NCBI GenBank assembly: GCA_965261345.1
Contig: OZ253449.1
Coordinates: 256,001-320,000 of the forward strand
DNA length: 64,000 bases
DNA from: Chloroflexota bacterium
Lineage (GTDB): Bacteria > Chloroflexota > UBA11872 > VXNJ01
Direction of reading: 5' to 3'
The translations under genes and the position numbers were made by a program. Of the stretch, positions 13,286 to 15,216 are shown in pieces; position 1 is the first letter of the stretch, and each line of letters begins with the position of its first letter. The notes under the pieces are model-generated. The model had not been told where the DNA came from and did no database searches. It worked only from the letters and a program-made list of their open reading frames with translations.

Positions 13286-15216
13286 TTCGCGGTAGGGACA
13301 CCGATTGCTCGGTGCCCCCCGCACAAATCCGTACGTGCGCGTTAACGCATACGGCTTTTAGCTCGGGTATTTGACGGCAAAGCGGTATGCGGGCCACGGG
13401 TGGAGGATTCGGGCAGGGGGAAGATGTGCGGCGCTCAAGGCGCGCAGTCGCTCCCATGGGAAGCGGTCGTTTTGCGAGCGGCGGCGGATGCTGTGTAGCC
13501 ACAGGCGCTCAAGCTCATGTTTGAAGCTTGAGAGGTGCCTGGAGCTGGTAGGAACGGCGTAGTAGCCGAACCAGCCCTGCAACACCATGCCGAGCCATTG
13601 CCCGGTCTCCGCTGGATCGTCGTGCATCGCTGCACGCAATCGCTCCTTGATCGCCTTCAGGGTGCGTCGAACGCGCTTGGCGATGGGCTTGCGCCCCAGT
13701 CCGAACCGTCCGTTTCGTTTTATCCGGCAGTAGTGAGTGAAGCCGAGGAAGTCGAACGTTTCCGGTCGCCCCTCGCCGCGCTTGCGGCGGCTCGCTTGTG
13801 CGTATCTGCCGAACTCGATCAGGCGGGTCTTGTGGTCTGCAAGCTCTAGTCCGTACTCTTTCAGCCTGTCCTGCAAATCCTTTGCAAATCTGGCCGCATC
13901 GCTGCGGTGTTGAAACGCCAGTACGAAGTCATCCGCGTAGCGGACTATATAGACCTCGCCGCTGGCCCGTTCGGGCCGCCATTCTTTGGCAAACCACGAG
14001 TCCAGGACTTTATGCAGGTACACGTTGGCAAGCAGCGGCGAAATCGGCGCTCCCTGCGGGGTTCCCTGCACTGTGTCGGACAGGACTCCGGCTTCCAATA
14101 CTCCGGTGCTCAGCCACTTGCGGATAAGGCGCAAGACTCTTCGGTCTCCGATACGTTCTTCCAGGAACGACATGAGCCGTTCGCGGTCGATTTGGTCAAA
14201 GAAGCTCTTTATGTCCGCGTCAAGAATCCAGTTGACTTTTCGGCGTTCGATGGCGTAGGCCAACGCGTCCAGCGCGTCGTGCGCCGACCTTTTTGGCCTG
14301 AACCCGTATGAGAACCCGGCAAATTCCGACTCGTAGATCGGGTCGAGGATTTGTTGACACACCGCCCGCTGGAGGATCTTATCCTCTATGGATGCGATTC
14401 CGAGCGCTCGCGTCCCCCCGTCCGGCTTGGGTATCTCTACCCTGCGGACGGGGGTCGCCCGGTAGCTCTGTCGGAGTACTCGGTCTTTTAGGTCGAGAAG
14501 GTTCTCTTCCAGGTTCTCCTCGTACATCCTCCACGTGATCCCGTCGGCGCCGGGGGCGGCTTGGGGCTTTAGCCCGTAGAACGCATCCCTTAGCGCGTCA
14601 AGGTCTACGTGGCGGGGGAGCGCGGTGAGTTTCTCCTCTGGGTTCTCCTTGGCAAATTGCCGTACCCGCTCGGCTCCGGGTGACACGGGGACCCACCCCT
14701 GGGTGTAGTCCGTGCCGGTGCCTTGCGGATTTCCCTTGCTTGCAGCCCTTCTCTCCAGCGGCTCCGCCGAGGACTGCTCCTCCTTGTTCGCCGCTTTCGC
14801 AGATACTATGGCCGCATCAGACTTCTGCTCGGCGTGCATCATCGGATTGCGAAACTCCTTATCTTCCCGATGCGGCCCCGGAGTTTGCGAGTACTCCGGG
14901 GCGCCGCGCAGATCTCCCAGTTCCCGGCATTGGACGTACGAACGTGCCTGGGTTCTTCGACACCGCAGAGCCCGGCGCTGACTGGCCCTTCGCGCCAACG
15001 CCGGTGTTGCCTTCGACCGCTTACAGGGTCTCGGCGCTCCGGAATTTATTCTTATTTCGGTGCTCAATAGCCCTGCCCGCCCGCGCCGCTGTCAACGCTT
15101 CATGCCCGGCCTCGCGACCGGTCACGCATGACTCGCGGAGTGCTGCGGATTGGCTCCTTTCCTTTCAGCACGCGGGACTTTCACCCGCTGTCCAATGCCA
15201 GTTAGACTGGCCGTTC
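13286..15216 (-). mobile_element. Group II intron (IIB-like, endonuclease-less IEP), antisense to the IS110 recombinase
   Basis: Domain V AGCCGTATGCGTTAACGCGCACGTACGGAT; DVI ending CCCTACCGCGAA; EBS1 loop GUAAGC at 15019-15024 complements 5' exon GCTTAC. Confidence 0.9.
13358..14842 (-). CDS. ltrA: Group II intron reverse transcriptase/maturase
   Basis: [22 protein letters not shown] and FDFLGF motifs plus X domain, no HNH domain. Likely start MMHAEQKSD. Confidence 0.92.

Follow-up and report, generated by a model that had tools for sequence, protein, structure and literature searches.

In the 64,000-nt window analysed here (contig OZ253449.1 of assembly GCA_965261345.1, positions 256,001 to 320,000, from a Chloroflexota bacterium), the minus strand of positions 13286-15216 carries a group II intron of 1931 nt whose reverse transcriptase (RT)/maturase gene is intact; the intron is inserted antisense into an IS110-family transposase gene. 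The intron starts with GAACGG and ends with GCGAA and thus departs from the group II consensus GUGYG...AY at both ends. Very probably it is a mobile bacterial group II intron from a genus-restricted sublineage in which normally invariant ends have been altered; with the same high confidence we judge its ribozyme to be IIB-like, of the compact type and from a lineage with a 5-nt loop in domain V (DV), and its RT/maturase to lack an endonuclease. Comparison of copies and target sites establishes the boundaries, the conservation of the ends, the covariation with target sites and recent copying. Since retrohoming inserts the excised RNA, we infer that splicing and reverse splicing take place at exactly these ends. 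The coordinates given in an initial annotation of this DNA, and all four sequence features on which it had relied, held up on re-inspection. The element is present in contigs from the sequencing runs of four studies, and one run spans both junctions; it is therefore not an assembly artefact. An Rfam search identified its 5' part as RF02005 (group II D1-D4-6) at 14951-15181(-) with 164.5 bits.

Empty sites and a twintron fix the intron boundaries

On the genomic evidence, the ends are fixed by four independent comparisons: with empty IS110 copies, with empty IS3-type orfA genes, with a twintron, and through covariation of exon-binding sites 1 and 3 (EBS1, EBS3) and of the gamma position. The interrupted locus is arranged as follows.

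13286-15216, minus strand: complete intron, 5' GAACGG...GCGAA 3' (nine aligned copies, empty IS110 sites, gamma and EBS3 covariation)
12448-13285, plus strand: N-terminal 279 codons of an IS110-family transposase, interrupted by the antisense intron (PF01548, PF02371)
15217-15326, plus strand: C-terminal remainder of the IS110 transposase, ..GKPKKVALTACMRKLL.. (open reading frame list, empty copies)

Removal of 13286-15216 joins ...GGCTTAC to CGCTC..., and the reverse complement of the joined sequence encodes E-S-G-K-P-K-K-V. Seven uninterrupted IS110 copies in the same genome read ...GGGTTTCC^C(G/A)CTCTCC... across the site (^ marks the point of insertion). All of them encode S-G-K-P-K-K, and six of the seven match the length of the joined flanks exactly (84+86=170). 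The empty form also occurs in contigs from runs of three further studies. Because gene and intron lie on opposite strands (gene plus, intron minus), the intron cannot be spliced from the IS110 mRNA. The initial annotation had argued that excision restores IS110 S-G-K-P-K-K; given the antisense orientation, this holds for the DNA insertion boundary, where the seven empty copies bear it out, and not as repair of an mRNA.

The second target is the start of an IS3-type orfA (M-A-K-R-K-Y-S-P-E-Q-I^I-N-K), found occupied at four sites, with the intron in sense orientation, and empty at nine. Seven empty sites of the same variant read gatca^tcaaca, which is the sequence of copies c7 and c8 after removal of the intron. 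These two copies (C1:135869-137800 and 1585797-1587723) lie in sense in the first codons (MAKRKYSPEQI^INK), and splicing of such sense copies could restore the transposase mRNA of the IS3-type orfA.

Finally, genome G098 of the same genus contains a twintron (L013/L016/L031), in which one copy is inserted in sense into the gene for the intron-encoded protein (IEP) of another (FLGL^THYC). When GAACAG...GGGAA is taken out, the junction is identical over 45 nt to four uninterrupted paralogues.

The altered ends are shared by nearly all copies found in the genus

The genome that contains the window is a single 2.39-Mb contig (C1) with nine full copies, 74-100% identical to the window copy, and one 5' fragment. 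The initial annotation had pointed to sibling copies as the place where canonical ends might turn up; flank alignment revealed the same ends in all of these. The nine full copies start with GAAC(A/G)GCCAG and end with CCUACCG(C/U)GAA, and the fragment shares the start. G1 is preceded by C, A or G depending on the copy, and the intron is followed by C or U. Of five further copies in three same-genus genomes (G047, G098, G010), four read GAACAG...GAA and one is decayed (GAUCGG...GAG).

The 12 aligned copies of this clade are 71-100% pairwise identical; 11 start with GAAC and 11 end with GAA. Measured against GUGYG, the 5' end reads GAAC(A/G)G in 11 copies and GAUCGG in one, with agreement at G1 and C4 only, and leader position 5 is A in nine copies and G in three. 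At the 3' end AY is replaced by AA in 11 copies and AG in one, with the penultimate A retained. Despite the divergence of the copies, the ends, DV, domain VI (DVI), the junction between domains II and III (J2/3) and EBS3 are kept. Copies c3 and c4 lie at different loci and differ at three positions in 1922 nt. We regard the ends as conserved and functional because they are shared by copies that diverge this far and also by this near-identical pair at distinct sites.

A compensatory change in J2/3 preserves the gamma-gamma' pair

According to PMC4424553, gamma-gamma' joins the last base of the intron to a base of J2/3 in a Watson-Crick pair; in ai5gamma this pair is A587-U887 (PMC3919574). To place the clade, we collected relatives from other Chloroflexota families (45-55% IEP identity), from a metagenome scan whose pattern left gamma open (at least 80 loci), from annotated plasmids, and from genome G145 (L018). 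Most relatives start with GUGCG and several with GAGCG (e.g., Skermanella pTT6-1, L026, L056, L111), all with a 5-nt leader before the same helix, and their 3' ends read GAY.

In an unbiased column scan, every 5'-region column of 36 introns was scored for pairing with a given base. The best partner of the last intron base was the first base of J2/3, with 33 Watson-Crick pairs and one G.U pair in 36 introns; the runner-up column reached 26. The Watson-Crick pairs divide evenly into G-C, A-U and U-A (11 each), and U-A is found only in the clade. Relatives that end in C have G at gamma and those that end in U have A, whereas the clade combines U with a terminal A. The last base therefore keeps its Watson-Crick partner, because the J2/3 base has changed to U. 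In the window the pair is U14819-A13286; the proposal that J2/3 UGA (14819-14817) compensates for the terminal A, made from this one sequence, is now backed by 36 introns. Applied to the first base of the 3' exon, the scan selected intron position 259 (14958), with 30 Watson-Crick pairs and one G.U in 35 introns (G-C 18, A-U 9, U-A 3). Such pairing of EBS3 with the 3' exon's first base is exon recognition of the IIB type.

Among the matches listed, 27 metagenome loci have a readable 3' end, with gamma/last-base combinations G/C in 15, A/U in 10, A/C in one and U/U in one; a terminal A occurs in none of the 27. The two loci that break the rule are L111 (gamma U, terminal U) and L114 (gamma A, terminal C, at a contig end). 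Further relatives have U at gamma. Seven of them (L047, L071, L074, L077, L105, L112 and L018, the last starting with GAGCG) lie on contigs in which the intron's 3' end is missing, and for L088 we found no matches to intron ends. Genome G320 (L034/L162) holds a nested or truncated copy whose ends are not recognisable.

The overlap of J2/3 with the IEP open reading frame (ORF) bears on how gamma varies. In the window the ORF reads AAG-UCU-GAU (K-S-D) across J2/3, and throughout the class it starts in domain II and runs through J2/3 and domain III (14842-14786(-) in the window), K-S-D being encoded as AAG-UCN-GAY. Gamma is free to vary since it is the wobble base of the Ser codon. In c3-type copies the IEP instead starts at an AUG in domain IV that follows an in-frame stop codon.

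In a quick maximum-likelihood tree of 36 IEPs, the clade forms one branch (SH-like approximate likelihood ratio support 100, length 0.9) whose sister group is L084 with the Skermanella intron (94). The clade lies within a set of relatives whose ends are GUGCG or GAGCG...GAY. The tree omits c2, c5, c9 and g010, whose IEPs are broken, as well as L026 and L018; two of its rows, L111 and L083, have very long branches, which probably stem from choosing the wrong longest ORF. Of 401 sampled genomes of the phylum, six contain the J2/3 pattern with U at gamma, four of the six belonging to this genus, and among the genomes searched the variant ends are confined to it. A scan of the genome collection with patterns from the IEP alignment returned one locus, the patterns being too specific. 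U2 to A is common among relatives, and the remaining end changes mark this lineage as a variant of a mobile intron that is ordinary in other respects.

The ribozyme is IIB-like and the 5' end lacks an evident compensation

The fold was derived with RNAalifold from 12 clade copies; the fold of domain III was not resolved and its limits are approximate. All of the following features lie on the minus strand, and positions numbered within the intron count from G1.

15217-15222: intron-binding site 1 (IBS1), GCUUAC, final 6 nt of the 5' exon; pairs with EBS1
15211-15216: single-stranded leader hexamer G1 A2 A3 C4 G5 G6; relatives have 5 nt (GUGCG/GAGCG) before the same helix
14917-15210: domain I (DI) (RNAalifold, 12 copies; RF02005 match 14951-15181)
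15095-15100: AAGCGU strand of the Ic1 internal loop, presumed lambda/epsilon' region; identical in the clade and in canonical relatives (37-intron alignment)
15049-15053: candidate EBS2, AAGAA, pairing with IBS2 UUUUU (15225-15229) (fold and flank comparison)
15019-15024: EBS1, the hairpin-loop sequence GUAAGC; covariation with the 5' flank in 14 copies
14958: EBS3, G, intron position 259, pairing with C13285; best column for exon +1
14820-14916: domain II, ending ...GAAGUC (RNAalifold)
14817-14819: J2/3, UGA, with U14819 as gamma (RNAalifold, column scan, ORF translation)
14786-14816: domain III (approximate), with CAUAGUA and CGAAC motifs (alignment)
13358-14842: IEP, an RT/maturase of 494 aa whose ORF begins inside domain II (TIGR04416, RVT_1)
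13326-13357: DV, with AGC triad, AC bulge and 4-nt loop (RF00029 alignment)
13289-13322: DVI, with bulged branch A 13293 (sequence inspection, Rfam alignment, relatives)
13286-13288: 3' tail GAA, A13286 being gamma' and A13287 the conserved penultimate A (copies, relatives, column scan)
13285: IBS3, C, first base of the 3' exon (column scan)

Within DI, positions 7-11 pair with a distal ACUGG at the end of the domain, U11-A alternating with G11-C, and positions 16-27 form a covarying 12-bp helix with the DI 3' strand. The Ic1 arm has a GCGA tetraloop and an internal loop UG/AAGCGU. We presume AAGCGU to be the lambda/epsilon' site by analogy with A115, G116 and C117 of ai5gamma. EBS2-IBS2 pairing is perfect where the sequence is UUCUU (c2 and G047) and weak elsewhere, and it is convincing only for copies at IS110 sites. 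DV, a hairpin of about 34 nt, is conserved in 12 of 12 clade copies and in 29 relatives; its loop has 5 nt in the relatives and 4 nt in the clade. The triad G pairs with A (G.A) instead of the usual U in the clade and in 23 of 29 aligned relatives. In DVI the bulged A13293, which the initial annotation had placed as in IIB introns, is located 7 nt before the last base and is followed by 4 bp and the 3-nt tail GAA. The clade retains what the chemistry requires, namely G1 and the penultimate A, a branch A placed 7 nt from the end, the triad and bulge of DV, and EBS1 and EBS3.

The IEP matches TIGR04416 (group II intron RT/maturase) with 358.7 bits against a cut-off of 300 and RVT_1 with an E-value of 6.5e-40; GIIM remains below threshold (19.3 bits against 23), and domain profile searches found no endonuclease (En) domain. 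The 5-nt DV loop of the relatives and the absence of En are indirect hints that the IEP may belong to class E, or to D or F.

At the 5' end, the clade departs from GUGYG by U2 to A, G3 to A and an additional nucleotide ahead of the first DI helix (G-A-A-C-R-G). Features conserved among the relatives but fixed differently in the clade comprise A3, the added leader base, A9, G81, U115, the helix pair A179-U248, U401, the DV loop shortened by 1 nt and the final A. In the 37-intron alignment we found no compensating change for A3 or the extra nucleotide; only U115 and U401 coincide with the lineage, and neither covaries independently. G3 has become A without any change in the presumed epsilon' (GC in AAGCGU), which would leave A3 opposite C.

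It is possible, though we consider it doubtful, that the ends are real and that a contact in a new register makes up for the 5' change, for example of C4-R5 with a UG elsewhere or of A3 with U401 or U115, giving a rewired epsilon/lambda network. The clade-specific C to U changes at 115 (closing pair of the Ic1 internal loop) and at 401 (just past J2/3) coincide with G3 to A, position 5 is A or G as expected of a partner of U, and the clade DV loop is 1 nt shorter. These coincidences, however, come from a single lineage and lack independent covariation: U115 also occurs together with G3 in three canonical relatives, c9 combines A3 with C401, and in the overlapping IEP ORF U401 replaces one Asp codon by a synonymous one. 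We regard it as equally tentative that the lineage has found a different structural solution for docking its 5' splice site (A3, 6-nt leader, short DV loop and unchanged epsilon') and still splices and retrohomes. If so, the supposedly near-universal epsilon/lambda network would be replaceable, and the AAGCG and (G)AUAGCG starts seen in metagenomes would make the 5' end of the class evolutionarily plastic. These are the apparent starts, judged by the extent of EBS1 pairing, of L046, L047, L053 and L110 and of L059, AAGCG having A at position 1. They stand on single contigs and could be decayed copies; if real, they would mean wider 5'-end plasticity in the intron class.

EBS1 loops track their target sites, arguing for retrohoming

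The EBS1 loop varies between subfamilies (GUAAGC, GAUUCU, UGAUCU, UUAGGC and others), and in 14 of 14 copies it pairs with the copy's own 5' flank over 4-6 contiguous bases. The pairing first proposed for the window, between GUAAGC (15024-15019, in a GACC/GGUC hairpin) and exon GCUUAC (15222-15217), is one instance of this covariation, which spans five kinds of site. That loops match their own flanks is a signature of retrohoming rather than of passive spread. Furthermore, the insertions are site-specific and multi-copy, and homing sites exist in both occupied and empty form, as befits a mobile element. Further signs of recent activity are the near-identity of c3 and c4 and an IEP that is intact in six of the nine copies of the genome.

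The intron would be transcribed from the minus strand, folded with the help of the IEP and spliced by branching at A13293. The lariat ribonucleoprotein would then reverse-splice into DNA sites selected by EBS1, EBS2 and EBS3, with the IS110 transposase gene (antisense), IS3-type orfA (sense) and other introns as targets. As an endonuclease is lacking, nascent DNA strands would serve as primers.

We also asked whether the copies might be decaying relics whose odd ends are disabling founder mutations and which owe their spread to recombination or to movement of ISs, not to retrohoming. Three of nine IEPs are broken, chimeric flanks and mosaic copies testify to recombination between copies, the introns reside in ISs that move themselves, and the runs listed with the sequence include no RNA run. 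We nevertheless hold this to be quite improbable. Each of five target contexts matches the resident copy's own, differing EBS1 loop, which hitch-hiking on ISs cannot produce; occupied and empty versions of the same IS coexist; the ends, gamma, EBS3, DV and DVI persist across 71-100% overall identity; a near-identical pair occupies separate loci; and a sister genome holds an intron within an intron.

Signs of exchange between copies are seen at several sites. Copies c5 and c6 share the upstream orfA flank with c7/c8 and differ from them downstream, where the flank of c6 is that of the c3/c4 site; this combination points to recombination between intron copies, and the copies themselves are mosaic. 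At IS110, the occupied copy and the 5'-fragment copy (C1:1299453) differ from the seven empty copies (e.g., 814453-814622) by four synonymous changes, all within the 14 nt upstream of the insertion site (15217-15230, the IBS1/IBS2 region). The empty-type site (GGGUUUCC) mismatches EBS1. This suggests either that the intron chose a matching IS110 variant or that the empty copies are effectively immune.

Points that weigh against the proposed ends

The remaining alternative places the boundaries one base over, so that the intron would read AACRG...GAAY with a canonical AY 3' end, the G being the last exon base and C/U the last intron base. In its favour, RF00029 sets 'AC' (13286-13285) on the consensus 'AY', every copy has C or U directly after GAA, and the G could form a wobble pair with the U 5' of EBS1. 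The shift nevertheless fails all four comparisons, is rejected and retains a negligible probability: it yields S-R-K and L-R-H in place of the S-G-K of seven empty IS110 copies and the L-T-H of four uninterrupted IEP paralogues, turns the orfA junction into gatcaGcaaca as against gatcatcaaca in seven empty sites, makes gamma U mispair with C or U in all copies, ignores that EBS3 covaries with C/U counted as exon +1, and requires a G that is invariant across unrelated sites to be exon while the Y differs among near-identical copies. The view of the initial annotation that a shifted frame fits worse can therefore be put more strongly.

Several observations weigh against our reading of a mobile intron with altered ends. 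The RF00029 (DV/DVI) match at 13285-13359(-) scores 36.6 bits, under the gathering score of 40, and it is this alignment that sets the final 'AC' on 'AY'. All U-A gamma pairs belong to one clade and therefore represent one evolutionary event. The A.C mismatch expected in the canonical epsilon pair might impair self-splicing. The window copy is antisense, so that its splicing is not under selection at this locus, and the IEP is intact in six of the nine copies of the genome and broken in three. Lastly, no RNA run is among the 23 runs listed for the sequence, the contigs examined being of DNA or unknown type.

The intron lies in a dense cluster of mobile elements

A weak Rfam match to sX15 (12269-12431(-), 32.5 bits, gathering score 55, E 0.015) lies just upstream of the start of the interrupted IS110 transposase gene. 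The same sequence also precedes other IS110 copies and probably represents a structured non-coding IS end. A second, distinct IS110-family transposase gene (469 aa, 15636-17045(+)) directly adjoins the interrupted one. Elsewhere, IS110 copies are located just upstream of IS3 orfA starts, and the mobile elements are densely nested.

Comparison with known group II introns

The GUGYG...AY motif serves both the annotation of group II introns and the argument for their kinship with spliceosomal GU...AG introns. The clade amounts to natural mutagenesis: U2, G3 and the last base have all been exchanged in a lineage that, on the comparative evidence, is still mobile. The clade indicates which end contacts can be dispensed with or swapped, such as gamma-gamma' in the form U-A, and which cannot (G1, the penultimate A and the branch geometry). 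It is also a warning for annotation, since boundary finders and Rfam set the 3' end one base off here. With its compact ribozyme and defined set of changes, the intron can be used to test the function of epsilon and lambda. It should be useful to ribozyme specialists and annotators and is not a new kind of element.

The closest annotated plasmid introns are a common one from Klebsiella pneumoniae (NZ_MW598236.1; IEP 50.5% identical over its full length), which may be Kl.pn.I5, and one from Skermanella sp. TT6 plasmid pTT6-1 (IEP 54.7% identical, full length). Both resemble the clade in their RF02005 type, lack of an endonuclease, domain layout and motif ...GAAGUC-NGA-..., in a DVI of the form ...CCCUACCGCGA-N with equal spacing, and in an IEP ORF that starts in domain II with K-S-D across J2/3. 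The Klebsiella intron starts with GUGCG and the Skermanella intron with GAGCG; both end with GAC and have gamma G, a 5-nt 5' tail and a 5-nt DV loop, whereas the clade starts with GAACRG, ends with A and combines gamma U with a DV loop of 4 nt.

The intron ai5gamma starts with GAGCG, and its DVI (CUA-UCGG-GAU: branch A, 4 bp, 3-nt tail) has the same geometry as that of the clade. A2 is thus not new, being present both in ai5gamma and in the relatives found here. As far as can be told, what is new is A3, a leader of 6 nt and a gamma U matched by a terminal A, in an intron that appears to be still mobile. The J2/3 base pairs with the last intron base in ai5gamma as well (PMC3919574), and the clade has this pair inverted, with U in J2/3 and A at the end.

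A compact IIB-like ribozyme of about 450-500 nt without the ORF, together with an IEP without En, is also reminiscent of IIE/IIF introns (Nagy et al., 2013; PMC3753933), for which the same paper lists a 5-nt DV loop, as in the relatives, as an idiosyncrasy; the likeness is one of features. The IIE/IIF introns tested there have canonical splice sites, 5' GUGYG and 3' AY (AC). We found no description of GAAC...AA ends in the full-text literature, provisionally, as the class-specific boundary profiles of PMC4028801 may list such variants. The exceptions to GUGYG...AY splicing listed in PMC4424553 are shifted sites: fungal IIB1 rRNA introns, C.te.I1 and B.c.I4 retain the GUGYG or AY motif and are cleaved 1-33 nt upstream of it or 50-70 nt downstream, and many of them are no longer mobile. 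In the clade, by contrast, the splice sites appear to be in their normal place, the letters of the motif itself have changed, and the intron is probably still mobile.

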